DNA of 46,669 bases, taken from the IMG/VR virus record IMGVR_UViG_3300010236_000002. One strand, 5' to 3'. This stretch comes from a virus. The translations under genes and the position numbers were made by a program. Positions 867 through 43,501 of this stretch are shown here, piece by piece. Below the pieces are notes generated by a model, which saw only the letters and a list, made by a program, of their open reading frames with translations, was not told the origin of the DNA and made no database searches. The first letter of the stretch is position 1, and each line of letters opens with the position of its first letter.

Positions 867-889
867 CTATGTTTAAATTTTGAACAAAG
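867..889. repeat. Palindromic intergenic element copy 1 (ctatgtttaaattttgaacaaag)
   Basis: Lies directly after stop 866. The CAAAG end is fused to SD AAGGAG (887-892) of the CDS starting at ATG 901. Confidence 0.9.
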
Positions 890-900
890 GAGAACAATAC

Positions 901-2466
901 ATGAACTACTTCTATGGATCGGATATGTATCCTACTATAACGGAAATGAGTGAGCTTGCACCTAGTCTCGGTGGTGCAGCTGCAGCGAGTAATCCTTGGC
1001 TTTCACTAATGGCGAATCCTGCTGTGCAGACGACGCTGTTGAACTTCGCCCAGGCTCTCGACCCGAAGGGCTTCGGCGGTAGGCTTGCTGATACCACGAG
1101 ACAGGCTATACAATCAGCGCAGACTGCGAAGGCTAACGCTATGGCGACAGGAATAGGTGCGACTAATGCACAGGTACCGCAACCGGCTGTCGCGCCCCCT
1201 GCAGGGAACGCTGGTACGCAGCCAGGAACGCCTGCGCCTATTCATGATCCTATGGACATTGCGCAGCAGTATACAAAATATGGCTCGGTGTTGAAGACGC
1301 TATCAGGGATGAACCCAAACTACTTCACCCCAAATGCGAGCCTTGCCTTAGGGAATGCCTTCAACAGCCAACCTGCCGTAAACCCTACACAAGCGGTCGA
1401 TAGCCAAGCTGCTGGACAGCCTTCGGCCGCTATGAACCCTGTTCAGCCCTTCGAGATTCCAGAGACTATGGCTATGGCTATGACACCAGAGCTCGTGCAG
1501 AATGCCTTTACGCATAGGCTTAATGTGCAGAAGACTGCGAACGAGACGCGTGCACAGAATAACGCTGACGCGATGTTGCCTACGGAGATTAACTACAAGC
1601 AGGCAGCTACGGATAAGCTGAAGTGGGATATAGACCCACAGAGAGTGGAAGATACCATTCGTGTGAACAGAGAGCAGGTGATGAACTATCTCGAGTTGCA
1701 TAAGGGTAAGCAGCAATTTGATATAGACACTGCGAAGGATTTCGTCAGTAGGTTCCCTGGCTTGTCGAAGACGAAGATTCCTTATAGTAACATGACCTAT
1801 GGCCAGGCGATTACTATGGCTGCGTATAATCCGCAGGGGAGTCAGAACATCTCTGGGCTTATCAACGCTGGGCTTGATTATAGAGCACAGATGGCTAGAA
1901 TGAACGCAGATATGGAGATGACAAAGATCAGAGCCGTTGCGGAAGGTAAAGCTGTAGATGCTAATAAGATGTTTCTTACATATGAGAAGGTGAATAAGGA
2001 TATAATGCATTATAGCAGCGATATTCCTGCAAAAGAATGGGAAGCTATGAAGCCCGAGCAACAAAGGGAAGCTATTGCGCTAGGTAGAAATCCGAGAACT
2101 CCAGAACGAGAGCAAGCTCTGCAACAAGCCATTATGCTTAGAGATACTATCGGTAGGCAGTTGATGCCTAACACTTATGATGACTTCAAAGTTGTAGAGC
2201 AGAACGCATCCAAAGCGGCAGGCGGTGTAACCCCTGGTATTCAGAGCGAGATAAATAAACTTCCCTATGGCTATACAGCACAGACAGACAAGCGTGCACC
2301 TGGTAGTGAATCTAGACCATTTACGTTGAAGGCAGATCCACAGAAGCTGAAAGATGTAGAACGTTCTATGCCAACAGTAGGTGGGCCAACAAAGCCTAAG
2401 AGTGTGCCTAGTAGCATGTGGCAGATGATGAATATCTTCAATTCTCCTTATGGAGGTAAGTCGTGA
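901..2466 (+). CDS. Hypothetical virion protein (521 aa), putative internal/ejection protein
   Basis: ATG 901 lies 8 nt after AAGGAG. The TTG 880 of the ORF track lies inside the palindrome and is less likely. Ala/Gln/Pro-rich with no catalytic motif recognised. The stop overlaps the GTG of the next gene (GTGA). Confidence 0.6.
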   Translation: MNYFYGSDMYPTITEMSELAPSLGGAAAASNPWLSLMANPAVQTTLLNFAQALDPKGFGGRLADTTRQAIQSAQTAKANAMATGIGATNAQVPQPAVAPPAGNAGTQPGTPAPIHDPMDIAQQYTKYGSVLKTLSGMNPNYFTPNASLALGNAFNSQPAVNPTQAVDSQAAGQPSAAMNPVQPFEIPETMAMAMTPELVQNAFTHRLNVQKTANETRAQNNADAMLPTEINYKQAATDKLKWDIDPQRVEDTIRVNREQVMNYLELHKGKQQFDIDTAKDFVSRFPGLSKTKIPYSNMTYGQAITMAAYNPQGSQNISGLINAGLDYRAQMARMNADMEMTKIRAVAEGKAVDANKMFLTYEKVNKDIMHYSSDIPAKEWEAMKPEQQREAIALGRNPRTPEREQALQQAIMLRDTIGRQLMPNTYDDFKVVEQNASKAAGGVTPGIQSEINKLPYGYTAQTDKRAPGSESRPFTLKADPQKLKDVERSMPTVGGPTKPKSVPSSMWQMMNIFNSPYGGKS

Positions 2467-5400
2467 ACGTAGTACTTCCTAATGGACAGATGATAGAGTT
2501 CCCTGATGGTACGAGGCAGGAGGTTATAGATGCATACCTTGCGAAGTATCCTGTAGGCCAGAAGCCAACTGAGGAGCCAGGGATAGGTGGGAGAATAGTT
2601 GGACACCTGTCTCGAGGTACAGCGAATACTCTGCAGATGCTCGACAACCTGGCGTCGTATGATAAGACTGGTTTGATGCAGCCTACAACGAAGGAGCAAG
2701 AGTTCTTTCGGCAGAATAAGTATGCCAGAGCAGTTGAGGAGCATCCGGAGAAGACTTGGTATGGGCAGCTAGGTGCAGGGCTGGTAGAGTTTGCCCCCGA
2801 GATGCCGCTGTATAGCATGGGTGGAGGCCTTGCGCTTCGTGGAGCTGCTACGATTCCAAAGGTTGGGAAGTATGCACAGGCGTTGCTTACGAAGTCTCCT
2901 ACTGCTCTTGGGCGCTATGGGAAGGCGATAGCAAGAGGTGGAGTAGAAGGTGGCGTGGTAGGTACAGTTGCCGGTACGCCTGCAGATACGCCGCTAGGTG
3001 AGAAGCTTCTGGAGGGTGGGAAGGGTGCACTGGAGTTTGCCGGTGCGGTTACAGTTCTGCATCCTGCATTTGCCGGTCTTGGGCTTGTCGGTAAGTCGAT
3101 ACTTCGTAGGCTCGGGAAGAAAGCAACGCCAGAGAAGGTAGAGCTTGAGCTAGAGAAGCGTGCAGAGAAAGACCCTAAGGCTGCTGAGGAGCTACAGGCA
3201 CTGAGGGAAGCAAGGGCAGAAGAGCCAGCTAAGACAGAGGAAGGCGAGCTATACGTCCCTGGGAAGGGAGAGAAGCTAGAGCAAGGTGAGCTCTTTGTGG
3301 AAATGCCAGGAGAGGCAGAAACGAAGAAGCTGAACGAGCTTGGCTTTGATAACGCGACGATTGAGCAGAAGCTGAGGGAAGGGAAAGATCAAGAGCTGAT
3401 TAATGCGATTGAGAAGGAGATACCTAATGATAAAGCGAACGAGCCAGGGGTACCAAGTGAAGTCGGAGGAAGGGAAGAAGCTGTCAAAGCCGACGTTATC
3501 GAGAGTGCAGGCAAGGAGGAGGCTGGCGCAGGTGGAGTGGTTCAAGAAGCACAAGGGGAAGCAACGAAGGTTGAGGAGGTAGGTACAGGCGAAGCCACCT
3601 CTGTTCAAAAATTAAACATAGAAGAACCGAAGAAGATAGAAGACATTCTTCCTCCAGAGGACGTAGCTAAAGCGAAAGCAGACGTCGCGAAGATAGAGGA
3701 GATAAAAAACGAAGAGAAGCCTGTTCCTACGGAAGAGAGCAAAGAAGCAGCAGTAGATAGTCTAGAGCAACGCCTCAACAAGCCACTCGAAGAAGGTGAA
3801 GAGATAGACTGGGATATGCTTCGAGACCTTGAGGGTACAGATGATCCTGTTGCGAAAGCGCTTGTAGAGAATATTCCGAGCAGCGGAGGTGAGCTTGCAG
3901 AGAGGCTAAGCTTCAGGCAGATGGTAGAGAAGGCGAAGGCTGAGGGGAAGGTTGAGGGTGTTTCTACGAAGCCAATCGAGACAAAGAACAAGAAGGGCAC
4001 GATCCGTAGAAGGAAAGCCACCAAGACTCCAGGGGACAAGCAGACTGTCAACGTACAGAAAGAAGCAGCAGCAGAACTTAAGGCTGAGTGGGAGAAGATA
4101 CTCGCAGACGAGGGGATGCCTGAGGAGCTTGGAAGGGAAGAGCTGCCTACAGAGAGTCTAGACTCCAGCTTTGATAGAGATGGAGCGCTAGATTTCAGTG
4201 ATCAAAGCATGTCGGTCTATAATAATATCGAAGATGGAGTTTACTTAGATAGCCTAGGCTTTCAGCAGATGTACCTGAAGCTTGCACCTTATGCTACCAA
4301 AAGTGCTCAGGCTCTAGGCCATCTCGGCAAGTTCATCTACATGGAAGGGCATAGGACGTTTGCAGAGTTTTCTAGCAAGCTGAAAGAAGTGCTGGGTGAG
4401 AGTTGGAATGCTGTTCGTCGCTACGCCAGGGATGCCTACAACGCTGCGAAAGAGTGGAATGATAGACTAGGCGAAGGTGGGTGGATTAGAGTTGGCCAGG
4501 GTGGTGCTAGTGAACTTGCAGGCGGAAGGATACAGGATAAGTTTATAGGTACAGGTGAAGGGTCAGGCCGCACAGCCTATACGGGTATGAAAGGTTGGGG
4601 GCATTACTTTAGCGCTGCGAAAGATGTCTATGAGTGGTATGCTGAGACTATTGGAGGGGCTAGACCTGGAGGTAAGAAGCACGTTCATGAGTTTGATCTT
4701 TCTATAGGACCTAGATATACATATAAAGGAGAAGAATTAAACGCTAATGATTTTGGGGCAGCTGATGCATATTTAGATCGAGGAGATATACCAGGCGCTA
4801 TTGAAATGCTAAATGATGTATCTCGGAGGGCTAAAGTTAATGGTGATATGAAAGGTAGTGAACACTTCAAAGCTATGGCAGATATAGTAGCTAGTCCTGA
4901 CTTTTCTTATAGTAATAAAAACACACTTAATCTACTTAATCTCGATCAAGAGATTCCTAAAGAGCAAGCTAAAACTATATCAGATGCTCTTAATTCATAC
5001 TTAGAAAAGGCAGATGATAGAAACAGAGATTATATCGAGATGCTGAAGAGAGAACTTGATCAAGATGTCCCTTATATTACTGGGACAGAAGTTCAAGCTA
5101 ATCTCCAGCTTATCTTTGGCGGTAAGAATGCATCGAAGTTTCTTACAAAGAAAGCAGGTATCCATGGAAATACCTATATCGGAGAAGAAAGTGGCGAACG
5201 TAACTACGTAATCTTCGACGAGAAGAACGTCCCGCCTCCAGTTAACCACTACACCCTCGACATGCTAGGTATGCATCAAATGTACGAGTGGGGCAGGAAG
5301 CTCGTTGCTTCTCGTCGTGCACAGAAGAACGCTCCCTCGAACGGAATTATAGCTGAGCTAAATGGGAAGACGCTTACAGCGAAAGACGATGCAGAGTTTG

Positions 5401-7961: not shown

Positions 7962-8220
7962 CTACTGCAGCCCTCATTCTTTTCTTTAGATGTACGAGAG
8001 GATGAGGGTTTTCTTTTCTCTTTCGCTTCTTTTCCTGTTTTGCTAGATAGGCTTTCTTCTGATATTCTTTTTCACACTCTATGCAATTCGATCTATAGCC
8101 GTCGACTCTATTCTTTTGCACATAGAAGAACTTTGCTGTGTCTTCGATTGCACAGCTGAAGCTACACTTTGAGCAATACCTTCTACCATCTTTTATATAC
8201 TTTGGTTTATACCTATTCAT
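7906..8220 (-). CDS. Zinc-ribbon protein (104 aa), Lys/Arg-rich C-terminus
   Basis: ATG 8220 has SD AAGGAA fused to palindrome copy 2. Contains CSKC...CIEC cysteine pairs. The last 56 nt overlap the convergent 1832-aa gene and the terminator hairpin, so the C-terminus is uncertain. Confidence 0.5.
   Translation of the reverse strand: MNRYKPKYIKDGRRYCSKCSFSCAIEDTAKFFYVQKNRVDGYRSNCIECEKEYQKKAYLAKQEKKRKRKENPHPLVHLKKRMRAAVATLNRSHQGTPQESQAGG
7971..8020 (+). terminator. Intrinsic terminator at the convergence point of the two transcription blocks
   Basis: CCCTCAT (7971-7977) pairs with ATGAGGG (8002-8008), with additional inner pairs. It is followed by TTTTCTTTTCTC and begins 10 nt after stop 7961. 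Confidence 0.6.
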
Positions 8221-8227
8221 ATTGTTC

Positions 8228-8250
8228 CTTTGTTTAAAATTTGAACATAG
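8228..8250. repeat. Palindromic intergenic element copy 2 (ctttgtttaaaatttgaacatag)
   Basis: Lies between stop 8251 of the helicase-like gene and the SD/ATG 8220 of the next minus-strand gene. Confidence 0.9.
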
Positions 8251-9441
8251 TTATTGTTGTTCGTAATCTTCATTATACTGCAGATACGTAGAACTTCCCT
8301 TGACAACCGTTCGGCAGAAGTTCATCTCCATAAGTGTAGCAGTTATTGCTGCGAGGGTGCGACTATCTGCGTCTAGGTATGTCATTCTCTGGAGCTCTGC
8401 TATACTTATCTCTTTCCTGCTCCCTATAATAGCCATCACTCGGTTCAGAGTATCGGCTTCTCTATTCTTCCCATATCCAGCAAACGTATGCGGCATGTTT
8501 CGCTCAGTTCGCTCTAGAATGTCCAGTGCTCGAAGGAAGTCCTCGTCTGTCAGAACCATATCGCCACAGCGACTAGCATTCATTATCATAGAGAGCTTCC
8601 ATAGATGCGTTGGCTTTCGCTCGAAGTATGGGGCGAAGCGATGATCGTCAAAGGGAGGCGGGCTATTGTCCGCTTTATAGTACCACTTTGTATAGACGTC
8701 GATAAAGCTATCGCTACATTGGAAGTTACCTTGCATCATCGAGATCTGTTCTAGGTCTATTAGCAACCGAGTCCCCAGTTCCTTTTCTTCTGGCGTTAGG
8801 AATGGCGCCAGCTCTGTGTGGTCTTTATTGCTTTCGTAGACAAAGATCATTCGACTTGTGAGGCCACCACCAATAGCATCAGGAGGCAGGGTTGAGTTGA
8901 GCAGTGCAGGTGTTGTTGCACCTATCAGGTTCACCCAGACTCCGGTTATGTCATCTGTTCCCATATTCTTCGTTCGATATTCCCAAGAGTCGCTACAGTC
9001 AAACCAGTCAGTCAAGTCCATCATCAGTTGTATGTTGTTGTATCCTAAGAATACAGTTAGTTCCTTGCTGAAGATCGTCAGCGAGGAGTGTAAGTACATC
9101 CTTCCACTCGCGTCTATGTGAGTATCTGAACTCGTTTTTAACTGATGTATCAAGGCCTCTCGGGTGATTGAGGAGCTCGATAGCTTTATCCCTAATTCTT
9201 TCAGGAAGCTTTCGCCGACAGACATAGCAGTCCCTTTTCGACACCGTCCTGGAGGACCAACAAGAACAATATACAGGTTCGGATATACGTTTATAGTGCC
9301 CCATTCGAGTTTAGTCTTCCTCCTCATACACGCAGCAATCACTGAGATAGCTGTCCATGTGTGATACATCCTCGGCGGCTCTGATCTCAAGGTGAATTCT
9401 AGATAACTCTCGAGCCAATCCTTGCACAGTCTCGTGCCCAT
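8251..9441 (-). CDS. P-loop NTPase, DUF3987/primase-helicase-like replication protein (396 aa)
   Basis: ATG 9441 has SD AAAGGAG upstream. P-loop-like LVGPPGRCRKGT, hydrophobic-acidic MIFVYE, and an N-terminal DWLESYLEF...YHTW segment typical of phage DUF3987-type proteins. The 5' 131 nt overlap the 3' end of the polymerase gene. Confidence 0.55.
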   Translation of the reverse strand: MGTRLCKDWLESYLEFTLRSEPPRMYHTWTAISVIAACMRRKTKLEWGTINVYPNLYIVLVGPPGRCRKGTAMSVGESFLKELGIKLSSSSITREALIHQLKTSSDTHIDASGRMYLHSSLTIFSKELTVFLGYNNIQLMMDLTDWFDCSDSWEYRTKNMGTDDITGVWVNLIGATTPALLNSTLPPDAIGGGLTSRMIFVYESNKDHTELAPFLTPEEKELGTRLLIDLEQISMMQGNFQCSDSFIDVYTKWYYKADNSPPPFDDHRFAPYFERKPTHLWKLSMIMNASRCGDMVLTDEDFLRALDILERTERNMPHTFAGYGKNREADTLNRVMAIIGSRKEISIAELQRMTYLDADSRTLAAITATLMEMNFCRTVVKGSSTYLQYNEDYEQQ

Positions 9442-21463: not shown

Positions 21464-21486
21464 CTATGTTCAAATTTTAAACAAAG
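21464..21486. repeat. Palindromic element copy 7 (ctatgttcaaattttaaacaaag)
   Basis: Overlaps the ligase stop codon (21477) and abuts the SD of ATG 21452. Confidence 0.9.
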
Positions 21487-24232: not shown

Positions 24233-24724
24233 TTATAGTTTCACCTCCTTTCTATCGGCTTCGTCCACTGTGTTCAATTTTTGAACATAGTTTGCAAGCC
24301 CATGAACTTGCGCAAACGGATAACTTGCGAGAAGACTTAGATACTTGTCTTCTAACTCTTCTCGACTTAGACTATGAATATGGTCTGGACAGCGGTTGCA
24401 GAAGCCTACGTAGTGATGGACGACTGCAGGGCTCTTGGCAGATATCGTGGTAACGTGACCGTCTATGCCCATGTTAGCAAGTGTCTCACCCTTCTGCAAA
24501 CGCACTGTGGTAGTCCACGTAGCATCGCAATGTGTGCAGTGATGGATACGAGTTACCTCAGTGTAGACGGTAACCGGAGGTTGACGCTTTGCAAAAGCCT
24601 TCTTGCTCTCGACCTTCTCAGCATCGGTAAGTTGCTTAACCATCTCCTTGAAGAGAGGATTACTCTCTGGGCTATCGCCGAAGAGAGTTCGCAGTTGTTC
24701 TGTGAGATCGTCTATATCTGCCAT
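24233..24724 (-). CDS. Cys/His-rich (zinc-finger-like) hypothetical protein (163 aa)
   Basis: HHCTHCD...FCNRCPDH. ATG 24724 follows GGGAGG. The 3' end reads through palindrome copy 8 (YVQKLNTV). Confidence 0.6.
   Translation of the reverse strand: MADIDDLTEQLRTLFGDSPESNPLFKEMVKQLTDAEKVESKKAFAKRQPPVTVYTEVTRIHHCTHCDATWTTTVRLQKGETLANMGIDGHVTTISAKSPAVVHHYVGFCNRCPDHIHSLSREELEDKYLSLLASYPFAQVHGLANYVQKLNTVDEADRKEVKL
24268..24290. repeat. Palindromic element copy 8 (ctgtgttcaatttttgaacatag)
   Basis: Lies inside the 3' end of CDS 24233-24724, 39 nt upstream of ATG 24229. Confidence 0.9.
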
Positions 24725-25562: not shown

Positions 25563-25585
25563 CTATGTTTAATTTTTGAACATAG
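25563..25585. repeat. Palindromic element copy 9 (ctatgtttaatttttgaacatag; full 23-bp dyad)
   Basis: Abuts the -35 of the consensus promoter at 25531-25559. Confidence 0.9.
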
Positions 25586-25595: not shown

Positions 25596-25724
25596 TCACC
25601 AGTTCCACGTTCCTACGCCTAAACCATGTGTCACAGCGCCGTAGGCCAACCAGGCTACAAACACCAGCACTACATAAACCGCCCAGCGAACGCGCTGTCT
25701 GAACTTGTATATGTTCCTAGTCAT
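25596..25724 (-). CDS. Small membrane ORF (42 aa, one TMD)
   Basis: ATG 25724 follows GGGAGGTGA. Hydrophobic core: WAVYVVLVFVAWLAYGAV. Confidence 0.4.
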   Translation of the reverse strand: MTRNIYKFRQRVRWAVYVVLVFVAWLAYGAVTHGLGVGTWNW

Positions 25725-26975: not shown

Positions 26976-26998
26976 CTATGTTTATAATTTGAACACAG
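26976..26998. repeat. Palindromic element copy 10 (ctatgtttataatttgaacacag)
   Basis: Abuts stop 26999 of the first early gene, 46 nt upstream of ATG 26930. Confidence 0.9.
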
Positions 26999-27926: not shown

Positions 27927-27949
27927 CTGTGTTTATATTTTAAACATAG
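27927..27949. repeat. Palindromic element copy 11 (ctgtgtttatattttaaacatag)
   Basis: Lies in the centre of the divergent promoter region, between the leftward promoter (27709-27737) and the rightward promoter (28103-28131). Confidence 0.9.
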
Positions 27950-30227: not shown

Positions 30228-30250
30228 CTATGTTCAATTTATGAACAGAG
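30228..30250. repeat. Palindromic element copy 12 (ctatgttcaatttatgaacagag)
   Basis: Lies in the 169-nt gap before terL, 20 nt upstream of ATG 30270. Confidence 0.9.
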
Positions 30251-31781: not shown

Positions 31782-31804
31782 CTATGTTTAAATTTTAAAC
31801 AAAG
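31782..31804. repeat. Palindromic element copy 13 (ctatgtttaaattttaaacaaag)
   Basis: Starts 1 nt after the terL stop. The CAAAG end is fused to the SD AAAGGTGGA of the portal gene (GTG 31815). Confidence 0.9.
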
Positions 31805-34800: not shown

Positions 34801-34835
34801 AAGCGCAGAAAGGGAACTTGGTACCGATAGAATGA
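31815..34835 (+). CDS. Portal protein interrupted by an intein (1006 aa; 655 aa after excision)
   Basis: Lies directly after terL and before the scaffold and capsid genes. Extein size is typical of portals. The intein is defined separately. Confidence 0.75.
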   Translation: MALNLDPGQTGGGNVTSIGSVEYHYPRGLDLRPSGPIHAKLLARLNQRIMESSNEISKRHSSWKKIDRTLTAYIPLDDAEKKVQDRDERKPVSIVIPYSFATLETLLTYFSAAFLEYPIFKYSGHGPEDRVGAILLEKVIEMQSRRAKMALALHTAFRDGWAYGLGAVAPYWDKVWGKKTVVEDATFFSALFAKMMSSGQKRVTKDVVLYEGNYLRNIDPYCILPDPNVPIHEVQKGESFGWIDTSNYLAILSEEQSDPQNCFNARYLAGYRGASGNSIYNKAKSSSGREERFGVGTQSAASSTSPIDKVYLYVNLIPKDWGLGSQEYPEKWLFCVAADKIILQARPLGLNHGMFPVATCSPDYDGYSVSPVSRLELIGGLQTTLDWLVNCYDDQTEVLTDRGWVLLSETIDSDRVATVDPVTRGFWFEQPKQWFEYDYDGWMLNFKSSRMDICVTPHHNMFARRRYKGSWDFIPAINLALDAKSEYKTIGNLNWNGVEPNAVEFAAEQPKRDRGHEVKYKKARIEPLVLAGFLGWFLSEGSISKGKVSGSYAISIKQAKRENYADIDGIMSAMPFHVTKTWDDKKDATQWTITDKRLYMWLKDNCYSSEGTTSEFKKVPFFVKAWDTYYLELLFERAILGDGYWIKGRDNLAQYGSKSKQLVDDLQEVALRLGYFSHTKLSTTPAGLPFYVLNISTSETNPTITTRNCYKTQYKGKVYCFENSTHLTVTRRNGKVAIQGQSHIQNVRKSINDMLVVDPSLVNINDLLDPAPGKLIRMRRAAWGRGVQNAVSQLAVNDITRSHIQDSAYITELIKTCSGSVDSVMGLARTGSERVSADESRGTRMAALSRLTKAAKVVSLQMMQDLSYMLASHTQQLMTRQVYVEATGRWEEELRSQYPDQSRINVDPLKLSIDYDIVEGDGSLPTGENADVMTTLFQSIVSQPMLSQQFDIVRIFQRICMMMGVKDVNEFKLRQQQGTLPNAAAITMPDQVVESEAQKGNLVPIE
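32985..34037 (+). mobile_element. Intein (351 aa, Cys1 ... Gly-Gln / Ser+1) with LAGLIDADG homing endonuclease in the portal gene
   Basis: The TGC Cys codon is at 32985-32987 (DWLVN|CYDDQTEVLTDRGW). Block B is VTPHHN; LAGLIDADG-type motifs are LAGFLGWFLSEGS and LLFERAILGDGY. The C-terminus is KVAIQGQ|SHIQN, with the Gln codon at 34035-34037. It aligns without gaps to the last 28 aa of the polymerase intein. Low GC. Confidence 0.8.
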
Positions 34836-35933: not shown

Positions 35934-35956
35934 CTATGTTTATAAATTGAACATAG
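35934..35956. repeat. Palindromic element copy 14 (ctatgtttataaattgaacatag)
   Basis: Lies 4 nt after the scaffold stop and 164 nt upstream of ATG 36120. Confidence 0.9.
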
Positions 35957-38786: not shown

Positions 38787-39936
38787 CAATTGGTGGACAA
38801 AGAACCTGCCGACTCAGAGGGCTACGATCACTGGCGTCTATACCGACGCTGCTATGAACGTGGCATATACTAGCGGTGGAGTTGCAGGTAGCGTGCTGTA
38901 CTGCAAGATGGGATCTGCCGATATCGTGCACTTCCGCGCTGGCCATCAGGTTCTCCTGCGGGATGCCAGTGACTTCACGGTTGATGTGAATGCGAAGGTT
39001 ATTGCGATCTCTAACAACGGGACGTCGAGCTTCATTCAGGTGAAGCTACTGGAAGCTGACGATAATAGCGCACACGGCCACGATCTGAGCGATGCAGATA
39101 CTGCGATTATCATCGGTAACATCAACGCTGAAGGTGCAACGATGCCTTCGGCTATCTCCTATGATCCTGTGAAGCTGTATAACTACACCCAGATCTTCCG
39201 CACCCCGTTGAGCATCACCAGAACAGCGAGGAAGACCAAGCTTCGCACGGGTGATGCCTATAACGAAATGAAGCGGGAAGCCCTGGAACTCCACGGGATC
39301 GAGATGGAGAAGGCCTTCCTTTTCGGTGTGAAGACGGAGAACACTGGCGACAACGGAAAGCCTGAGAGAACCACGGAAGGCCTTATCACCTGCATTCGTG
39401 CAAACAATGCTACGAATGGTGTAGATGATTTCTCCTTGTCCAGCACCTACAGTGGTAAGGGATGGACTGAAGATGGTGGTGGTGAAGACTGGCTTGACAC
39501 CGTTCTTATGAACCTGTTTATGTATGGTAGGGACACCAAGTTGGCCTTCTGTGGCAACGGTGCTCTGCTGGGTATCAACAAGCTGGCTAAAGCTGGTAGC
39601 CATTTCAACATCACGCCTACCACGATCGGCTATGGCATCAAGGTCATGGAGTGGATCACGCCCTATGGAACGCTGATGCTGAAGACGCATCCGCTGTTCA
39701 ACTATGAAACCACGCTTCGTTACTCGATGCTCTGCTTCGAGCCTGAGAATCTCTCCTATCGCTACATCGACGATACGTCGTTCTATGGCGAGGGAGGGAA
39801 GACTGCTGCTAGTGGAACGAACGCTGGACGGAAGGACGGAACGGATGAGGAGTATCTCACCGAAGCCGGTCTTGAGTATCATCATCCCTACACCGCAGCT
39901 TTCCTGAATGGTGTTGGTGTAGATAACGCTGTATAG
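38787..39936 (+). CDS. Major capsid protein, exon 2
   Basis: The frame is open from 38770 and there is no SD before the first ATG (38854). It continues the exon 1 sequence. The spliced product is 433 aa, is followed by a strong terminator, and lies in the head module. Confidence 0.7.
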
Positions 39937-39976: not shown

Positions 39977-40026
39977 GGGTTTGTGGGAGTACATACTCCA
40001 GCCGTGCTTCCACAAACCCTTTGTTT
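39977..40026 (+). terminator. Intrinsic terminator after the major capsid gene
   Basis: GGGTTTGTGG (39977-39986) pairs with CCACAAACCC (40010-40019). There is an inner GGAGTAcaTACTCC hairpin, and the stem is followed by TTTGTTT. Confidence 0.7.
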
Positions 40027-40041
40027 AAAATTTGAACATAG
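40019..40041. repeat. Palindromic element copy 15 (ctttgtttaaaatttgaacatag)
   Basis: Overlaps the T-tract of the capsid terminator and lies 20 nt upstream of ATG 40061. Confidence 0.9.
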
Positions 40042-40060
40042 AGGAAAGAAAGGACGAGAT

Positions 40061-40396
40061 ATGTTTGTATTCGAGACAATGGGAGTTGCTGGTGGTTTTG
40101 AGACGCTTAGTGATACTACTAGTGCGATAGGCTTCACTGCTGCTACAATAGCACCGACGACAGGGAACCATGCTGGGAAGAAAGCTAAGGCTGCGCTTAT
40201 TTCGGTGGAGACCGCAGATATCCGCTTTACGCTTGATGGAACTACGCCGACTGTAACTGCAGGTACAGCTGCCGGGCACTTGGTACCTTCTGATGGGGAG
40301 TACGAGATCAAGGGAAGCGCGAACGTAGCGAACTTTCAGTGCATCAATGCGGTAGCGAGTAACGGTGCAGTTGTTAAGTGCACATTCTTTTTCTAG
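40061..40396 (+). CDS. Small structural protein (111 aa)
   Basis: ATG 40061 follows GAGGAAAGAAAGGA. The longer ORF-track version starts inside the terminator. Confidence 0.55.
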   Translation: MFVFETMGVAGGFETLSDTTSAIGFTAATIAPTTGNHAGKKAKAALISVETADIRFTLDGTTPTVTAGTAAGHLVPSDGEYEIKGSANVANFQCINAVASNGAVVKCTFFF

Positions 40397-40406
40397 GAGT
40401 ATGACT

Positions 40407-42698
40407 ATGAAACTCAAATCCCTTCTTCTCTCCCTTCTCTGCCTGTTTCTGTTCTGCGGGACGGGGTGGGGGGCGACTTGGTACACGAAAGTTGACCCCG
40501 TTAATGGGGCAACGAAGGTTTGTTATTCAACAACCTCCTTTGATGCTGCTTGTACGGAAAACAGCAACAAGACGTTTGCTGATCTGGTAACAGCGATCAC
40601 CGCAGGAGATACCATAGAATTAAGCGGAGGGTCATCGGGGGCAACGTATGAACAGGCAATCAACTTAACTAAAGCCTGTAATTTCAATGCCTCAACTGCC
40701 AGTGGACACAATGGAACGATAACGCTTGATACAAAGAGTGCTGCGGAGGGTATTGATTTTCACCATACTTCTGGGACGGTAACTATAAACGGTCCTTTTT
40801 ATCATACTTATGTATATCAAGAGGATTGTGGTGCGGGACAAGCTCTTCTTTTTCGTTCAGGGGGAAACCCAGTAATTATCAATAATTATCATCTTGTCAA
40901 ATCAAGGGCAGCAACTTGGGCGCAACATGTGAATAGCGCTAACGTTCAATTCAACTATAGCTCTATTCAAGATATCGGGGTTGGGGATCAATTATATAAT
41001 AACGCCACAACCGCCACCTATACTTTCAATTACTGCCTATTTAGGAATTGCTATTTAAACTTTGCGGGAACGCTGAACCTAAACAATAGCATCCTGATTA
41101 GGCAGACCAAGAAACGAGACGAGCATATAAATGTATTAGCGACAGGGGTATTAAATTCAAAAAATAATGTCTATTTGGGCGGTCAGATACCAGTTAACTC
41201 TACTACCGGCTCAACGGTTAATTCAACCAGTGATTATTATGAAACAACCAACTTCGACGATGCGGGGTTGTGTACTCCTGTTAATAGAGTAACTAATTTC
41301 CCAGACTTTGTGAACATGCGAGATGGGAGCGGTGAGGTTGTTATCGCCGTAGATGATATGATCGCGGATGCCTATAATTTTGCATCTGATCCAGCGGTTA
41401 TCGCTTCTGGTATTAAGATGTCCTTTGCTTATCCGGCCAACGCAAATACTTGGACAGCAACGACAATAGACTACCTGCGGTATTTCATCAATAACGGGCA
41501 TGAGGTTGCAACGCATAACAATACTCATTCTGGAATGGGCAATCTTAATTGTGGGTTTTCCCTATCCGCAACTGGAACATCACCAACAATTACTATTACA
41601 GGCACCCGTTCCGGAGATTCCTCAACGTGGACAGGCACACTACGGATTACAATCAACGGGCAGAATTTAGACGTTGATCTGGCAAACGCCTCCTATGACA
41701 CGATGGGAGAGTTATTTACTTATCTAAAAAACAAAACGGTTGGTGATGGCACTATTTCGGTTCCGTCACTAACTCCGACAGACAGCAAAGCGGCAATACT
41801 GAAAAGTTTAACTCTGGCAGATGTATCCGCACAGTCTATATCAGCCTCATATATACCGCAGTTAGATGAGACAGCCTTTATCCGATTCGAAGCGATTGAG
41901 GCGATCCTTGATTTACAAGCACGGGTAAATACTGGTTCTGACAGAAATGGCAATGGAACCGTAACAGGTATGACTCAACCAGCACCAAGTCCAGCCTATG
42001 TGTGTCATATTTTCAGGACAGCAAATGGACAAGGTCGTGTTGCATTGGAAACAGCACTTAGAGATCAAGGAACCGTGCAGATTTATGGTGGCACAGCAAT
42101 TGGAACTGGCACAGCAACAACAGATATATGGGCTGGAGGAGTGAACGCATATCAATCCAACTATCCTATCAATATGTATCGGTTCCCATACATTAACGCC
42201 ACCGATGCGCTCTATCTAACATATGTCAAATCAGCCACAGTAAGCCCTGGGAGGGTTTGGCATCCATTATATCATGAAGCCCCTACGTATGGTGGAACAA
42301 TACAGGGGCTGGTCGATCTATTTAATCAGTATGGCCTAAAGGGTGTTAGGCTTGAGGATGTCATCACCCGCGTCACGGATAGCGGCAACTGGACGGCGTG
42401 CAATACGAATTACTGGTGCTATACGGGATCATACGGGGCATACGCCGCGAAAGGTGATTTTCGGTTGAAATCGCCATCCCCTTTTATCAACGCCGGAGTC
42501 AACATCTGCACCGGAGTGGATACGCCTCTGGTGGGATGCACCGGGGCGGGAACGGGAACTTATACCGACTATGCAGGGAAGGCAATCAGGGGGCTGCCCG
42601 ACATCGGGGCGTATGAGTTCTATCCAAGTGGAGGGGGAGGGGGAGCATTTGGACGAGCATTCAAGCGCTTCTGGAATGTGTTTAATCCTATTAACTAA
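40407..42698 (+). CDS. Sec-signal-bearing parallel beta-helix protein with CE4 (NodB)-like polysaccharide deacetylase motifs (763 aa); candidate receptor-modifying enzyme or tailspike
   Basis: ATG 40407 lies 7 nt after AGGAG. Signal-peptide-like MKLKSLLLSLLCLFLFCGTGWG|A. Asn-ladder repeats (IINNYHL, FNYSSIQ, FNYCLFRNCYLNF...LNNSILI). VIAVDDM and GHEVATHNNTH match the NodB DD / HxxxH motifs. C-terminal PDIGAYEF. Lower GC than its neighbours. Confidence 0.55.
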   Translation: MKLKSLLLSLLCLFLFCGTGWGATWYTKVDPVNGATKVCYSTTSFDAACTENSNKTFADLVTAITAGDTIELSGGSSGATYEQAINLTKACNFNASTASGHNGTITLDTKSAAEGIDFHHTSGTVTINGPFYHTYVYQEDCGAGQALLFRSGGNPVIINNYHLVKSRAATWAQHVNSANVQFNYSSIQDIGVGDQLYNNATTATYTFNYCLFRNCYLNFAGTLNLNNSILIRQTKKRDEHINVLATGVLNSKNNVYLGGQIPVNSTTGSTVNSTSDYYETTNFDDAGLCTPVNRVTNFPDFVNMRDGSGEVVIAVDDMIADAYNFASDPAVIASGIKMSFAYPANANTWTATTIDYLRYFINNGHEVATHNNTHSGMGNLNCGFSLSATGTSPTITITGTRSGDSSTWTGTLRITINGQNLDVDLANASYDTMGELFTYLKNKTVGDGTISVPSLTPTDSKAAILKSLTLADVSAQSISASYIPQLDETAFIRFEAIEAILDLQARVNTGSDRNGNGTVTGMTQPAPSPAYVCHIFRTANGQGRVALETALRDQGTVQIYGGTAIGTGTATTDIWAGGVNAYQSNYPINMYRFPYINATDALYLTYVKSATVSPGRVWHPLYHEAPTYGGTIQGLVDLFNQYGLKGVRLEDVITRVTDSGNWTACNTNYWCYTGSYGAYAAKGDFRLKSPSPFINAGVNICTGVDTPLVGCTGAGTGTYTDYAGKAIRGLPDIGAYEFYPSGGGGGAFGRAFKRFWNVFNPIN

Positions 42699-42704
42699 GA
42701 ACCT

Positions 42705-42727
42705 CTATGTTCAAAATTTGAACAAAG
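42705..42727. repeat. Palindromic element copy 16 (ctatgttcaaaatttgaacaaag)
   Basis: Lies 6 nt after stop 42698. The CAAAG end is fused to the SD AAGGAG of GTG 42737. Confidence 0.9.
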
Positions 42728-42736
42728 GAGACGCAA

Positions 42737-43474
42737 GTGGACTACGTTGATATAAGAAAAAAGTTCTGCGAGATTTCTGGCCGCTACGATCTGATGACTG
42801 CTACGTATGAAGATAACGGGGCAGATTTCTTTCTGAACCTTGCGCAGAAATACCTCGACCGCTTCTTTGATGATGGAAAGGCTATCGCTCGGTATCCAGT
42901 AGCCTTGGCTGCTGGGGAGTATATAGCTAAGACTGTTGGTATTAGGTCGATCAAGGAAGTATGGATTGCGAATAGCGATGGGAAGAGCGAACTCGAAAAG
43001 TGCACTCTTCAGGGGCTGCAGACAGAATATAGCGATGGGTTTGCTTATACTGACCAAGGGACGCCAGCTTACTACGCTCCAGCAGTCTTTCGGCCTTATC
43101 CAGATACGCTGGCAAGTATCACTGGCTTGTATGGAGTAGATGACCTTATCCTCAACGCAACGGAGCACTATACCTACAATGGTGTAGTAATCATGCCCCC
43201 GCCTGATGTAGCTTACACGCTTGAGATAGTCGGGCTCTTCTACTCTCCAACGCTGAGCGCAACCCTAAGCGGTGCAGTGTGGACGCAGACTAAGAGCTAC
43301 TGGACAGAAGTCCACCCTGAGACACTGATAAAGGCTGCTATCTACCAAATGAAAGCGATGTATCATGATAGTAGCTCGGCGGACTACAAAGCTATCTTGG
43401 CTGAGGACGTAACAGGGCTAATCGCTGACGATACAGAGCAGATGCTAACTAGCTACCTCCAGATGAATGGCTAA
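42737..43474 (+). CDS. Hypothetical structural protein (245 aa), head-tail connector/tail region
   Basis: GTG 42737 lies 6 nt after AAGGAG. The call rests on position only. Confidence 0.5.
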   Translation: MDYVDIRKKFCEISGRYDLMTATYEDNGADFFLNLAQKYLDRFFDDGKAIARYPVALAAGEYIAKTVGIRSIKEVWIANSDGKSELEKCTLQGLQTEYSDGFAYTDQGTPAYYAPAVFRPYPDTLASITGLYGVDDLILNATEHYTYNGVVIMPPPDVAYTLEIVGLFYSPTLSATLSGAVWTQTKSYWTEVHPETLIKAAIYQMKAMYHDSSSADYKAILAEDVTGLIADDTEQMLTSYLQMNG

Positions 43475-43478
43475 ACGG

Positions 43479-43501
43479 CTATGTTCAAATTTTAAACAAA
43501 G
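43479..43501. repeat. Palindromic element copy 17 (ctatgttcaaattttaaacaaag)
   Basis: Lies 4 nt after stop 43474. The CAAAG end is fused to the SD AAGGAG of ATG 43510. Confidence 0.9.

Follow-up and report, generated by a model that had tools for sequence, protein, structure and literature searches.

We propose that a 23-bp dyad element, present in 17 copies in the 46.6-kb genome of an uncultivated phage (the window, by which we mean the whole stretch of DNA analyzed), constitutes an array of dispersed parS-like loading sites, and that its likeliest reader is the HTH of a ParB-NTPase/HTH/N6-N4-methyltransferase fusion protein (ParB-MTase) encoded at 12758-14122. Judging from sequence comparison, we give this reading roughly an even chance. 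The element would be a double-stranded DNA site that is read as sequence, with a phage-encoded protein binding its two half-sites and all copies having co-evolved with that putative reader. Two molecules of the fusion protein may dock on the dyad, the binding of NTP (probably CTP) would close their N-terminal domains, and the protein could spread or slide in an NTP-dependent manner across the neighboring few kilobases; with a site every ~2.7 kb and gaps of at most 4.6 kb, the whole phage chromosome would lie within its reach. The simplest purpose would be to aim the fused methyltransferase at phage rather than host DNA, an anti-restriction strategy based on methylation in cis. A second possibility would be that the protein influences transcription globally, as KorB does, given that one copy abuts the strongest early promoter and another is kept just upstream of the gene cassette that includes the fusion. 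The ParB-MTase fusions are a class without a known target site, and the array suggests docking points for a ParB-like clamp. The links between the ParB-MTase and the element are correlative, and the tight fit of stop codon, element and Shine-Dalgarno (SD) sequence is beyond what a pure loading-site role explains.

Definition and Distribution of the Element

The element has the layout 3+6+5+6+3 = 23 bp, in which each half-site reads CTnTGTTYA, and the consensus common to the 17 exact copies is CTNTGTTYA-W5-TRAACANAG, with none expected by chance. Each of the 17 fits CTNTGTTYAWWWWWTRAACANAG without a mismatch, the genome contains no extra sites at 1-2 mismatches, and 100 dinucleotide-shuffled controls gave 0 matches. 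In a PWM scan the copies score 30-37 bits and stand well apart from the runner-up at 2.6 bits. An earlier note on this DNA had claimed a genome-wide palindromic element that would not occur by chance, and both claims are borne out by these counts. As a whole, its observation of the element is partly confirmed and its interpretation partly supported. Of the 16 starts that it listed as strong copies 15 are exact, the copy placed at 17043 in fact beginning at 17033, and it overlooked the copy at 3599-3621; the decayed copy that it reported at 18365 has no PWM support and there is no copy there. Its consensus captured the element with 1-2 letters too many, and its placement of all copies at gene boundaries was too sweeping, since copy 3599 is mid-gene, those at 17033 and 24268 lie within ORF ends, and that at 21464 spans the ligase stop. 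The fusion of the CAAAG end to the SD does hold at 867, 8228, 12735, 15033, 31782, 42705 and 43479, the promoter beside copy 25563 is a perfect TTGACA-17-TATAAT, and copy 27927 is indeed flanked by divergent promoters (Table 1). That first reading did not extend to how evenly the copies are spaced, to their co-evolution across the family or to their linkage with the cassette.

Table 1. Copies of the element in the window and genes of the conserved cassette.
Feature	Coordinates	Strand	Location or description
Copy 1	867..889		Between stop of 72-866 and SD/ATG (901) of next + gene
Copy 2	3599..3621		In frame (S-V-Q-K-L-N-I) within 1832-aa ORF 2463-7961
Copy 3	8228..8250		Between primase stop (8251) and SD/ATG of 7906-8220(-)
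Copy 4	12735..12757		Just past ParB-MTase stop, ahead of PolA start
Copy 5	15033..15055		Upstream of string dCMP deaminase - 77-aa - 79-aa - ParB-MTase genes
Copy 6	17033..17055		3' end (last ~27 codons) of predicted ORF 16977-17252(-), upstream of AAA_24 ATPase gene
Copy 7	21464..21486		Contains DNA ligase stop codon; then SD of 21099-21452(-)
Copy 8	24268..24290		Last ~15 codons of predicted ORF 24233-24724(-)
Copy 9	25563..25585		3 nt upstream of -35 of perfect sigma70-type promoter (25559-25531, minus strand)
Copy 10	26976..26998		Intergenic, leftward block
Copy 11	27927..27949		Divergent control region, promoters 27737(-) and 28103(+)
Copy 12	30228..30250		Closely upstream of TerL
Copy 13	31782..31804		Immediately past TerL stop, ahead of portal gene
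Copy 14	35934..35956		Intergenic, late block
Copy 15	40019..40041		Downstream of major capsid protein gene (38854-39936)
Copy 16	42705..42727		Joined to SD of 42737-43474
Copy 17	43479..43501		Joined to SD of 43510-43875
ParB-MTase	12758..14122	-	ParB NTPase fold (GGRRFKA, ENICRED) + ParB-type HTH + N6/N4 methyltransferase
79-aa basic protein	14119..14358	-	Gene overlaps ParB-MTase gene start by 4 nt
s77, 77-aa protein	14361..14594	-	First gene of conserved cassette; rival or accessory candidate binder

A 99-bp terminal overlap implies a circular genome, around which the copies are evenly spaced. The mean density is one copy per ~2.7 kb, the largest gap is 4.6 kb versus 9.4 kb expected (P = 3e-4), and the gap CV is 0.47 versus an expected 0.92 (P = 8e-4); with the null limited to gene junctions, the even spacing has P < 1e-4. 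The sole mid-gene copy (3599) splits an otherwise 7.4-kb gap and belongs to the window's longest gene; in the relative L105, too, the mid-gene copy is in the longest gene. Relatives follow this trend (Fisher combined P about 5e-9, the loci not all being independent), for example L049, whose gaps are 5800/5675/5451, and L105, whose gaps are 3313/4513/4396/2864/4557.

Variation of the Element Among Related Phages

The 22-24-bp dyad architecture recurs, at a density of 2-4 copies per 10 kb, in a Desulfofustis phage and in over 100 contigs of related uncultivated phages, and on this one architecture, with its A/T center and mostly a CTnTG...CAnAG frame, more than 20 lineage-specific arm types are found. 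Orthologous junctions keep their copies across arm types, namely before and after TerL, after the primase gene and upstream of the cassette. Copy 12 is kept in relatives of other arm types (L004, L022), copy 13 in L002, L019 and L021, and the copy upstream of the cassette (15033 in the window) in at least 12 arm types. Because the arm types differ at conserved positions, all copies within a genome change together, and this joint change implies a co-evolving, phage-encoded reader protein. Across 596 Gb of bacterial reference genomes the element does not occur beyond chance, with 12 single matches, none of which resembles the phage.

Sequence Versus Structure

The evidence is against an RNA hairpin. 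Of 10 copies folded in the sense strand, 4 have an MFE of 0 and the other 6 lie between -2.8 and -7.5 kcal/mol, a C.A mismatch occurs at positions 8/16 of the sense strand in 8 of the 17 copies, and positions 3/21 are mostly non-complementary. Changes within genomes are one-sided and more often transversions (133 of 230 single-arm deviations), while 42 double changes, 19 of them compensated, compare with 13.6 expected under independence; this excess comes mostly from spurious, loosely matched sites and thus is no evidence for compensation, compensated pairs being at chance level. Some lineages have consistently asymmetric half-sites, and two stem mismatches are present in most copies of L105 and L013/L184. 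An Rfam search with the element gave no match, there is no trailing U-tract, and a terminator scan does not select the copies, in agreement with the previous claim that they are no ordinary terminators. Of the two functions envisaged in that note, a DNA operator is supported by sequence being conserved over pairing, by the independent variation of half-sites and by the joint change of copies at kept positions, and a sequence-specific RNA hairpin is not supported, given the folding energies, the C.A mismatches and the chance-level compensation.

We hold it very unlikely that the element is any nucleic-acid hairpin, be it an mRNA terminator, processing site, stabilizer or SD-masking coupling stem, or a cruciform or single-stranded DNA signal for priming or nicking. 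Such a structure would be in keeping with the dyad symmetry, with the loop-like center spacing of 4 to 6 nt, and with the many copies that fit exactly between stop codon and SD, their 3' arm supplying AAAG to the latter; the G+C-rich arms of some relatives, e.g., TGAGCGGTCAAA/TTTGACCGCTCA, would fold well, and an endonuclease VII-like gene lies at 7906-8220. The arms also change between lineages with palindromy kept, but a homodimer site would be palindromic in every lineage anyway, so this is no argument for pairing, and a hairpin leaves the one shared sequence per genome unexplained.

The ParB-Methyltransferase and Its Covariation With the Site

In the ParB-MTase of the window the HTH occupies about residues 131-160 and the N6/N4 DNA methyltransferase residues 230-427. 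A profile of the N-terminal 215 residues matches Noc, ParB, Spo0J and KorB (E = 1e-17 to 2e-6), the GGRR and ENxxR boxes are invariant in the homologs, and the HTH is in register with that of Noc, the HMMER alignment here being a sub-threshold segment. A ParB-N plus MTase protein is encoded in all 76 contig groups in which the region is covered, and the cassette in relatives ends in the same fusion of ParB NTPase fold, ParB-type HTH and N6/N4 methyltransferase. No family member is without the element or without the cassette, and co-occurrence therefore has no negative control. The core of the element, TGTT(C/T)AAA-T-TTT(G/A)AACA, equals parS (TGTTTCAC-GTGAAACA) at 5-6 of 8 positions per half-site.

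Covariation of protein and site was assessed by a partial Mantel test over 42 lineages with primase distance as the control. The partial r with the element is 0.34 for the ParB HTH region (P = 0.0005), 0.06 for the NTD and 0.14 for the MTase; for s77 it is -0.06 (strand), -0.07 (helix 2) and 0.14 (helix 3; P = 0.04). Only the HTH region of the ParB-MTase co-varies with the element beyond phylogeny, the signal from helix 3 of s77 being weaker. The protein regions had not been separable in a previous version of the test, which covered 25 lineages and used the MTase domain for control. The residue that follows the conserved Ser of the recognition helix is P146 in the window and aligns with Noc Q158 and ParB R173, the experimentally defined specificity residue (PMC7383237). 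Its equivalent is H, R or K in 15 of 15 lineages with GG at half-site positions 5-6 and in 5 of 26 lineages without (tallied by eye; hypergeometric P about 2e-7, which ignores phylogeny), that is, the residue aligned to the ParB specificity residue tracks the T-to-G change in the site. Recognition helices can differ at the same arm TGTTCAAA, reading KSVGSISMD in L033 and VSPAKLVQD in the window. The fusion is without the ParB C-terminal dimerization domain, which closes the canonical clamp.

Of the binders that had been suggested for the element, the ParB-HTH-MTase is the candidate favored by the comparative data. The protein at 28157-28627, proposed as an HTH binder, is no regulator but the homolog of the Desulfofustis-phage gene annotated as terminase small subunit, and that at 25717-26328, proposed as an RHH-like binder, has no family match and no match among the 55 annotated Desulfofustis-phage proteins queried. 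The last candidate, the RHH-like protein at 14361-14594 (s77), is conserved beside the ParB-MTase in nearly all relatives; its N-terminal strand remains constant when the site changes, and the searches gave no confirmation of its fold.

Alternative Explanations

It seems to us rather unlikely that the array is a set of operators for another phage DNA-binding protein (s77, the 79-aa basic protein or an unrecognized factor), with the ParB-MTase merely co-inherited. Such a protein would serve as a global transcription regulator, be it a roadblock or 'stoperator', a KorA/KorB-like repressor, or an insulator between transcription units. The s77 gene leads the cassette in nearly all loci (81 matches) and is present in 73 of 76 contig groups, 2 of the 3 absences being contig-end truncations; in at least 12 arm types a copy is placed directly at its start or one gene farther up, an arrangement that resembles autoregulation. 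In the AF2 model of s77, three helices come after an extended N-terminal segment, which would suit a ribbon-helix-helix with one additional helix, and there are weak matches to RHH_1/ParD in 3 of 29 homologs (E 0.05-0.09) and to the ArgR winged helix (E = 0.016); the modest covariation of helix 3 and the copy that abuts a consensus promoter could be added. Yet covariation with the site is absent from the N-terminal strand and first helix of s77 (r = -0.06), the strand reads PRLSVEIS whether a genome has TGTTCAAA or TGGTAAAT arms, searches with the window protein gave no Pfam or PHROG family and no Foldseek match, and L183 retains both the array and the ParB-MTase with no 77-aa gene at the conserved place. 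The 79-aa gene lies directly upstream of the ParB-MTase gene in L001 and L183 also. Furthermore, a start codon follows within 7-20 nt of most copies, so that these have no promoter downstream for which they could be operators; the scan of roughly 40 ORFs revealed no integrase or repressor, and so no hint of lysogeny that would need silencing; and the element is symmetric, whereas stoperators are asymmetric and transcription-oriented (PMC4351075).

That the element is selfish or recombinational, either a REP/MITE-like mobile palindrome or a module-boundary sequence for cassette exchange whose uniformity results from copying, has little probability in our view. Short gene-boundary palindromes that hardly vary inside one genome yet differ from lineage to lineage would fit, as would the encoded AAA_24 ATPase, DUF669 protein and PD-(D/E)XK nuclease with their recombination functions, and the homing endonucleases and probable inteins indicate a genome open to mobile DNA. 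The three copies inside ORFs share one reading frame, and Rickettsia palindromic elements also sit inside ORFs in one reading frame. However, positions are kept while arms differ (TerL, primase, cassette), which speaks against turnover by transposition, no transposase or RAYT-like gene is present among the ORFs scanned, the bacterial matches are at chance level, even spacing is unexpected for a selfish element, and 23 bp with a 5-bp constant frame would probably be too short for homogenization by gene conversion. Least probable is a T7-group-like promoter, or a terminator, that serves a sigma-like factor or RNA polymerase of the phage which escaped recognition. T7-type promoters do agree with the element in size, in copy number and in being uniform within a genome, the copies co-evolve as a set across lineages, and a cryptic polymerase might lie in the large ORFs 880-2466, 2463-7961 and 40365-42698, which have no detectable family. 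But these ORFs probably belong to a virion module (synteny with L001), in what would be a podovirus internal/ejection protein region, and no RNA polymerase or sigma domain is present in any ORF scanned, as had been claimed for the polymerase. Strong host-type promoters are at the expected places, the symmetry of the element gives no direction, copies of the same form occur in both transcription blocks and inside genes, and a start codon is often just 7-20 nt away.

Comparison With Known Systems

Among the analogs that had been named, KorB of RK2 is apt, and the stoperators and PeSL cassettes fail on defining features. KorB, too, combines a ParB-family NTPase fold with an HTH, and the N-terminal profile of the phage protein matches it in the PDB (8qa8, E = 2e-6). 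It reads a short perfect palindrome, the 12 OB operators being dispersed over a 60-kb replicon with some adjoining promoters and others far from any, and it is encoded beside a small partner protein, KorA, just as the ParB-like gene of the phage comes after two conserved small genes. The differences are that OB is 13 bp and the phage site 22-24 bp, that KorB has a C-terminal dimerization domain and no enzyme domain where the C-terminal half of the phage protein is a DNA methyltransferase, and that KorB works with IncC (ParA) in partition, while no ParA is seen in the phage. We know of no description of even spacing for OB sites. T7 has 17 promoters of 23 bp, and the promoter sets of T7-group phages (podovirus genomes of ~40 kb) evolve with the specificity of one phage protein; unlike the dyad element, these promoters are asymmetric and directional and require a phage RNA polymerase, and no polymerase was detected among the ORFs scanned.

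With ParB-parS and Noc-NBS, in which two HTH domains bind a 16-bp dyad with two-fold symmetry (PMC7383237), the phage system shares the conserved GxxRxxA and ENxxR NTP-binding boxes, the alignment of its site-tracking residue with R173/Q158 and, in the case of Noc, the dispersal of sites over the chromosome. In contrast to the parS sites, which cluster near the origin and serve segregation with ParA, it occurs in a phage without ParA or signs of lysogeny; its site exceeds parS in length, having a CTn/nAG frame in addition and a center of 0-2 bp, a methyltransferase replaces the C-terminal domain, and more than 20 specificity types exist within one phage group. The combination of ParB fold and PF01555 methyltransferase is that of M.EcoGIX, M.BceJIII and the phage ParB-CTPase/N6N4-MTase fusions, which are frequent in phages and prophages and for which an anti-defense role is suspected (PMC12704722, PMC7736820). 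M.EcoGIX and M.BceJIII have single-stranded DNA as their substrate, where they target SAY, a short and degenerate motif, and they have no known loading site (PMC7736820); the ParB-fold/SAM-dependent methyltransferase fusions assayed bound ATP, not CTP (PMC12704722); and none of the characterized plasmid ParB-domain methyltransferases is known to be linked to a dispersed palindrome.

Cluster A stoperators resemble the array in their many short intergenic copies, a single phage-encoded reader and a lineage-specific consensus; they are, however, 13-14 bp long, asymmetric and transcription-oriented, and the protein that reads them is the immunity repressor of temperate phages (PMC4351075), whereas the phage site is symmetric and a repressor, an integrase and signs of lysogeny were not found among the ORFs scanned. 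The Cluster O mycobacteriophages (Corndog) carry a 17-bp palindromic repeat, 5'-TGTTCGGNNNCCGAACA, in more than 30 copies with perfect dyad symmetry, mostly in short intergenic gaps and in some cases inside genes, with no transcription orientation and in a lytic phage (PMC4351075); we re-found 9 copies in 10.5 kb. Corndog is an unrelated Mycobacterium siphovirus, its repeat of 17 rather than 23 bp is denser at one genome end where the array described here is even, and a link between the repeat and gp90 is not proposed in the Corndog paper (PMC4351075). This gp90, which has no methyltransferase domain, is an orphan ParB-like protein of Corndog; it contains ParB_N as well as an HTH-like stretch, and it is not accompanied by parA. 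The outer bases of the Corndog repeat, TGTTC...GAACA, are the same as those of the element.

A Genome-Wide Array of Palindromic Sites

The 23-bp dyad dispersed over the window is real, and it is a stronger feature than was realized when it was first described from the sequence alone, in that the array is evenly spaced and family-wide and its copies co-evolve. The corrected consensus CTNTGTTYAWWWWWTRAACANAG recovers 17 copies at zero mismatches, none at one or two mismatches, and none in 100 shuffles, and in a position weight matrix scan the same 17 copies score 30–37 bits while the next best position reaches 2.6 bits. The type-B form of the 23-mer is CTATGGTAAATAATTTACCATAG. Fifteen of the start coordinates listed in the earlier note proved to be exact in these scans, the one given as 17043 should read 17033, the copy at 3599 had been missed, and the "decayed" copy reported at 18365 is unsupported.

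The proposal that every copy sits at a gene boundary holds for the 14 copies that are strictly intergenic, which often occupy the entire space from a stop codon to the next Shine-Dalgarno sequence, but not for copy 3599, which lies mid-gene, or for copies 17033 and 24268, which fall within the last codons of predicted ORFs. The stop codon of the ligase gene falls within copy 21464. One copy is 3 nt from the −35 element of the strongest promoter, which is of consensus type, another lies in the divergent control region, and most copies leave no room for a downstream promoter. The choice of C or T at positions 8/16 has no consistent orientation relative to transcription. The three ORF-internal copies are read in one shared frame, x-(S/Y)-V-Q-(K/N)-L-N-(T/I), which is not significant (n = 3; the element has stop codons in just one of its three frames).

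On the circular genome the gaps between the 17 copies range from 0.8 to 4.6 kb. Seventeen points placed at random would be expected to leave a largest gap of 9.4 kb (P = 3e-4) and to give a coefficient of variation of 0.92, compared with 0.47 for the observed gaps (P = 8e-4), and the result also holds when copies are drawn from gene junctions only (P < 1e-4). The sole mid-gene copy is in the longest gene, where the gap would otherwise be 7.4 kb, and the same is seen in the related locus L105. Regular gaps are likewise found in other relatives (5800/5675/5451 bp in L049, 4340/4371/4010 in L088, and 3313/4513/4396/2864/4557 in L105), with a Fisher's combined P of ~5e-9 for 24 loci, some of them non-independent. 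Such even coverage points to a function that acts from separate sites and has to extend over the entire chromosome.

Genome and Gene Content

The exact overlap of its two ends shows that the assembly is circular and represents a complete genome with a true size of 46,570 bp. The phage, assigned by exact protein matches to NCBI WGS project LDZT01, is uncultivated and podovirus-like, with recognizable genes for virion and packaging proteins (SU10-type major capsid protein, portal, and TerL), for replication (a DUF3987 primase and a DNA polymerase of family A that carries a fused UDG domain), and for a dCMP deaminase, a DNA ligase, a PD-(D/E)XK nuclease, an AAA_24 ATPase, and an HNH homing endonuclease. 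Features with their coordinates are listed in the table below. Scanning ~40 ORFs with Pfam or PHROGs revealed no integrase, no repressor, and no partition ATPase. Three large late ORFs have no Pfam or PHROG match and are presumably virion or ejection proteins; the product of the longest of them had no match by tblastn against GenBank phages or by phmmer against the PDB.

The sole GenBank relative is Desulfofustis phage LS06-2018-MD01, which has the same gene order and a TerL identity of 44%; a megablast search with 16.7 kb gave no match among GenBank phages. This metagenome-assembled phage is the only named member of the group, which is large since more than 500 IMG/VR stretches, mostly on 42–52-kb contigs, encode a relative of the DUF3987 primase (scanned with a primase alignment). 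Two genes are longer than their counterparts in the relative. The PHROG matches within the polymerase we take to be due to intein-bearing family members, which suggests an intein inserted in this gene, and the extra length and LAGLIDADG_3 domain of the portal protein suggest that a structural gene, too, holds an intein with a homing endonuclease. The free-standing HNH_3 gene had no match among the annotated Desulfofustis-phage proteins queried.

Coordinates of features in the window and, where named, in related loci
Feature	Coordinates	Observation
Terminal overlap	1-99 = 46571-46669	99 bp, exact
Leftward gene block	~27.9 to 7.9 kb	Early/replication genes
Rightward gene block	28.1 kb through junction to 8.0 kb	Late genes
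Strong host-type promoters	27737(-), 28103(+), 25559(-)	
Large late ORF	880-2466	528 aa
Large late ORF	2463-7961	1832 aa; 5.5-kb gene, copy 3599 in frame
Large late ORF	40365-42698	777 aa
Cys-rich protein	7906-8220(-)	Last leftward gene; 104 aa; weak endonuclease VII/Lar-like matches (E about 5e-5); overlaps 3' end of convergent 1832-aa gene by ~55 nt
UDG-PolA fusion	9311-12721(-)	~310 aa longer than Desulfofustis-phage ortholog; residues 515-833 match PHROG families annotated PhoH-like and ribonucleotide reductase
ParB-methyltransferase	12758-14122(-)	
79-aa basic protein	14119-14358(-)	
77-aa protein	14361-14594(-)	
HNH_3 endonuclease	22331-22807(-)	Free-standing, C-terminal HTH, between early genes
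Portal protein	31815-34835(+)	1006 aa vs 652 aa in relative; LAGLIDADG_3 domain at residues 639-698
Asymmetric copies, L105	about 237, 3550, 8077, 12459, 15323, 19894	CTACGTTgAAT-A-ATTcAACACAG
77-aa gene missing, L183	4760-5061	Between DUF669 gene and basic-protein/ParB-methyltransferase pair; 72-nt gap holds element copy
Corndog gp90 region, L108	50000-60500	Mycobacterium phage Corndog; 9 copies of TGTTCGGNNNCCGAACA in 10.5 kb

Conservation of the Array Among Related Phages

Related loci were fetched from IMG/VR with TerL, ParB-methyltransferase, and primase queries and gave 114 contig groups, in which a dyad of 22–24 bp is present at 2–4 copies per 10 kb wherever sequence suffices. The dyad of the relatives has an A/T-rich center, usually in a CTnTG...CAnAG frame, and its arms comprise more than 20 lineage-specific sequences, examples of which are TGTTCAAA, TGGTAAAT, TGTCCCAA, TGTCCAAT, GGTGAAA, CGTAACAA, GCGGTCAAA, GTTACAT, GTTGATT, and GGTTAA. 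Orthologous junctions, namely those before TerL, after TerL, and after the primase, keep their copies despite the differing sequence, and in at least 12 arm types a copy lies directly or one gene upstream of the cassette formed by the ParB-methyltransferase gene and two small genes. That all copies of a genome change together at fixed positions is expected from a co-evolving trans-acting reader and argues against a mobile element. The promoters of T7-group phages and the stoperators of Cluster A mycobacteriophages likewise change together with their trans-acting reader.

A negative control, that is, a relative with the cassette and no array or the reverse, was sought and none was found. The L013/L014, L105, L080, and L062 loci at first seemed to be element-free and each carries a diverged or asymmetric variant that was missed by the automatic detector, whose sensitivity is about 50% and whose "none" calls are therefore no evidence of absence. 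Gut-phage contigs L121–L123 showed no dispersed palindrome, a result that is uninformative because they are partial and encode distant ParB-like proteins that are not orthologs. The L105 site is consistently asymmetric, and 5 of the 10 copies in the L013/L184 genome have the asymmetric form CTTnGGTTAAT-W-ATCACCCnAAG. A simple homodimer site would hardly account for these asymmetric versions, and the site may be directional in those lineages; the L105 variant is co-oriented with transcription in 5 of 6 copies, which is not significant.

Alternative Explanations for the Element

Two readings of the dyad had been put forward in the earlier note, an operator set for a DNA-binding protein and a sequence-specific RNA hairpin, and it is the former that is favored by the present analysis. 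When the sense-strand RNA is folded, the minimum free energy is 0 in 4 of 10 copies and −2.8 to −7.5 kcal/mol in the remainder. Positions 3 and 21 are mostly non-complementary, and positions 8/16 of the sense strand would be C.A in eight copies, U.G in four, and a Watson-Crick pair in five. Across 33 genomes there are 230 single-sided deviations from the consensus of the same genome, 133 of them transversions. Double changes do number 42 versus 13.6 expected under independence, with 19 of them compensated, but they come mostly from spurious, loosely matched sites and so give no evidence for compensation. The asymmetric sites of L105 and L013/L184 would in addition produce two stem mismatches, Rfam has no match to the element, and the element copies are absent from the list of a terminator scan. 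An intrinsic terminator, an RNA processing hairpin, and a stem-loop of the PeSL type are thus all rejected, as is a DNA hairpin. The folding and substitution evidence indicates that what is conserved is the sequence of the two half-sites, which is what binding of a protein to double-stranded DNA would predict, and together with the joint change of copies across relatives this makes it likely that the element is a DNA site read by a protein.

Other identities fare no better. The stoperators of Cluster A mycobacteriophages, also proposed as an analogy, are asymmetric, oriented with transcription, and bound by the immunity repressor of a temperate phage, whereas here the site is a dyad without orientation and the ORFs scanned gave no repressor or integrase; this analogy and that with PeSL cassettes therefore fail on the defining features that were tested. 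A REP- or MITE-like mobile palindrome is opposed by the conservation of positions across arm types, by the lack of any transposase among the ORFs scanned, and by a scan of 185,579 reference bacterial and archaeal genomes that gave only chance-level single matches, none of them with similarity to the phage of the window. A set of promoters for a T7-like phage RNA polymerase would share the joint change of copies but would be directional; the element is symmetric and, in agreement with the original statement that no such gene exists, the scanned ORFs yielded no polymerase domain. Strictly speaking, a cryptic polymerase could still be among the three large family-less ORFs. A reading of the element itself as a host sigma70 promoter, with TGTTTAAAT as the extended −10, is rejected because by inspection this motif is missing from relatives with G+C-rich arms. 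A host-factor site for LexA or CRP/FNR is rejected because the sequence varies between related phages, and the mini-ORF ATG-TTC-AAA-TTT-TGA that can be read within the element fails on the lack of conservation at position 3.

The ParB-Methyltransferase as Candidate Reader

The ParB-methyltransferase is encoded in all 81 loci fetched with it and in 76 of 76 primase-centered groups that cover the region. The window protein has PF02195 at residues 21–94 and PDB matches to ParB, Spo0J, and Noc (E = 1e-12 to 1e-17), and a profile of its first 215 residues matches structures of Noc, Spo0J, ParB, and KorB with E values from 1e-17 to 2e-6. Both NTP-binding boxes, GxxRxxA and ENxxR, are present, with GGRR invariant in 82 homologs and residues E92, N93, and R96 of the second box invariant in 7- and 22-sequence alignments. 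Directly after the NTPase fold is an HTH-type pattern, G-x-S-x5-D-[IL]-x-L-A, which a HMMER alignment places in register with the Noc HTH; this segment alone is sub-threshold and PF17762 is not reported by Pfam for the protein. The C-terminal half is an N6_N4 methyltransferase (PF01555, residues 230–427) and takes the place of the canonical ParB C-terminal dimerization, or clamp-closing, domain, which is absent.

Two small genes, for the 77-aa and the 79-aa basic protein, precede that of the ParB-methyltransferase. The former, the "RHH-like" candidate of the earlier note for the binding factor, is found in 81 loci. In the window this 77-aa protein belongs to no Pfam or PHROG family, its homolog search gave 54 clusters, all of them unnamed, and a PDB profile search returned ArgR only (E = 0.016), with scattered RHH_1/ParD matches in Pfam (E 0.05–0.09). 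The AF2 model had a pLDDT of 62 from the single sequence and of 80 with 46 homologs, and with the latter model Foldseek found nothing in the PDB. The L183 locus keeps the array and the ParB-methyltransferase though the 77-aa gene is not at its usual place.

Which of these proteins recognizes the element was addressed by covariation. A first test with 25 lineages and the methyltransferase domain as control was non-discriminating, with r = 0.16–0.24 for every region. A partial Mantel analysis of half-site consensus distance against protein-region distance, using 42 lineage representatives and the primase as phylogenetic control, is summarized in the following table, where region labels are ~8 residues above window numbering because the group of the window is represented by the closely related L031 protein.

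Covariation of protein regions with the half-site consensus
Protein region	Partial Mantel r	P
ParB HTH region	0.34	0.0005
ParB NTPase domain	0.06	not significant
ParB linker (label 167-205)	0.13	0.05
Methyltransferase domain	0.14	0.065
77-aa protein, N-terminal strand + helix 1	-0.06	not significant
77-aa protein, helix 2	-0.07	not significant
77-aa protein, helix 3	0.14	0.04

The HTH-specific signal supports the ParB-methyltransferase among the candidate binders named originally, and the others are unsupported; genomes with TGTTCAAA arms and genomes with TGGTAAAT arms encode a 77-aa protein with the same N-terminal strand, PRLSVEIS. At the residue after the conserved Ser of the ParB recognition helix (P146 in the window) all 15 lineages with GG at element positions 5–6 have His, Arg, or Lys, compared with 5 of 26 other lineages, in which Pro occurs 14 times and otherwise Ala, Val, Phe, or Gln (hypergeometric P ~2e-7, tallied by eye and uncorrected for phylogeny). 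In the HMMER alignment P146 corresponds to Noc Q158 and ParB R173, the position that sets parS-versus-NBS specificity as established by mutagenesis and crystallography (PMC7383237). Some lineages share an arm type and yet differ appreciably in their recognition helices. The case is suggestive rather than closed, and on this comparative evidence we give the ParB-methyltransferase about an even chance of being the reader protein.

A Possible Loading-Site Mechanism

If the ParB-methyltransferase is the reader, the dyad could be a parS-like nucleation site on which two molecules would dock via their HTH domains. NTP binding would then engage the N-terminal domains and the protein would spread or slide over neighboring DNA, so that the even 2–5-kb spacing would permit cover of the whole genome. 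The simplest purpose would be cis-targeted methylation of phage DNA as anti-restriction, and it is possible, if somewhat doubtful, that the element works as a loading array for such methylation. Equally tentative is the fuller proposal that the parS-like sites recruit an NTP-switched ParB clamp carrying its own methyltransferase, which would be loaded only on phage DNA and slide a few kb; if this loading-clamp reading holds, the spacing would reflect how far the clamp can travel. Transcription might also be influenced in the manner of KorB, given the copy next to the strongest promoter and the one kept just upstream of the cassette.

There are difficulties with the loading-site mechanism, as the clamp-closing domain is missing and the tight packing of stop codon, element, and Shine-Dalgarno sequence is left out of account. 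The plasmid ParB-domain methyltransferases characterized so far act on single-stranded DNA with a short degenerate motif and have no known loading site (PMC7736820), and those ParB-fold fusions to SAM-dependent methyltransferases that were tested bound ATP rather than CTP (PMC12704722).

A DNA methyltransferase is one of the most frequent fusion partners of the ParB fold in phages and prophages, and as of the 2025 survey such proteins have no known DNA target or mechanism (PMC12704722). The 23-bp dyad of this phage group is a concrete candidate for that target, together with a protein residue that apparently sets its specificity. If true, this would be the first loading site for these widespread proteins and a new way for a virus to distinguish its own DNA from that of the host when modifying it, and the CTP-switch/parS principle would extend from segregation to targeted DNA modification. 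Palindromes scattered over the genomes of lytic phages would likewise be explained as a class, the repeats of Cluster O mycobacteriophages being the obvious next example, and the more than 20 site/HTH specificities would be a natural series of orthogonal ParB-parS pairs, a kind already used for DNA labeling. Should the prediction fail, the array would still be a robust genome-wide feature of a large uncultivated phage group.

Comparison With Known Systems

We found no paper in which a dispersed palindrome is linked with a ParB-methyltransferase fusion; N6N4-methyltransferase fusions are described as frequent in phages, with function and DNA site not known, in the 2025 survey of the ParB-CTPase fold (PMC12704722). 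In descriptive terms the array comes closest to the 17-bp repeat TGTTCGGNNNCCGAACA of Cluster O mycobacteriophages, lytic phages in which this dispersed repeat has no explained function (PMC4351075). It shares with the present array tens of perfect-dyad copies that are mostly intergenic and unoriented, a lytic phage, and an orphan ParB-like gene, the product of which has an HTH but, unlike the window protein, no methyltransferase. Corndog gp90, for example, has a ParB_N domain and, after it, the HTH-like stretch GLSVTKVAKRLSVSSEKV, which can be aligned with the HTH of the window protein; a methyltransferase domain is lacking, and a link between gp90 and the repeat is conceivable. As the Cluster O class is descriptive and without a known mechanism, membership says little about function.

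The window protein resembles the ParB of ParB/parS systems in its NTPase fold with GxxRxxA and ENxxR boxes and differs in lacking the C-terminal dimerization domain and a ParA partner, since no ParA/CbiA-type match was seen among the ~40 ORFs scanned with Pfam or PHROGs and the sole ATPase, AAA_24, is of the recombination type. The analogy with KorB of plasmid RK2, already drawn in the original description, is apt. By analogy the array is best described as a dispersed ParB/KorB-like operator array. In mechanism it would stand closest to KorB and the 12 OB operators of that protein, which the 17 palindromic copies resemble in being dispersed over a replicon with some of them adjoining promoters.
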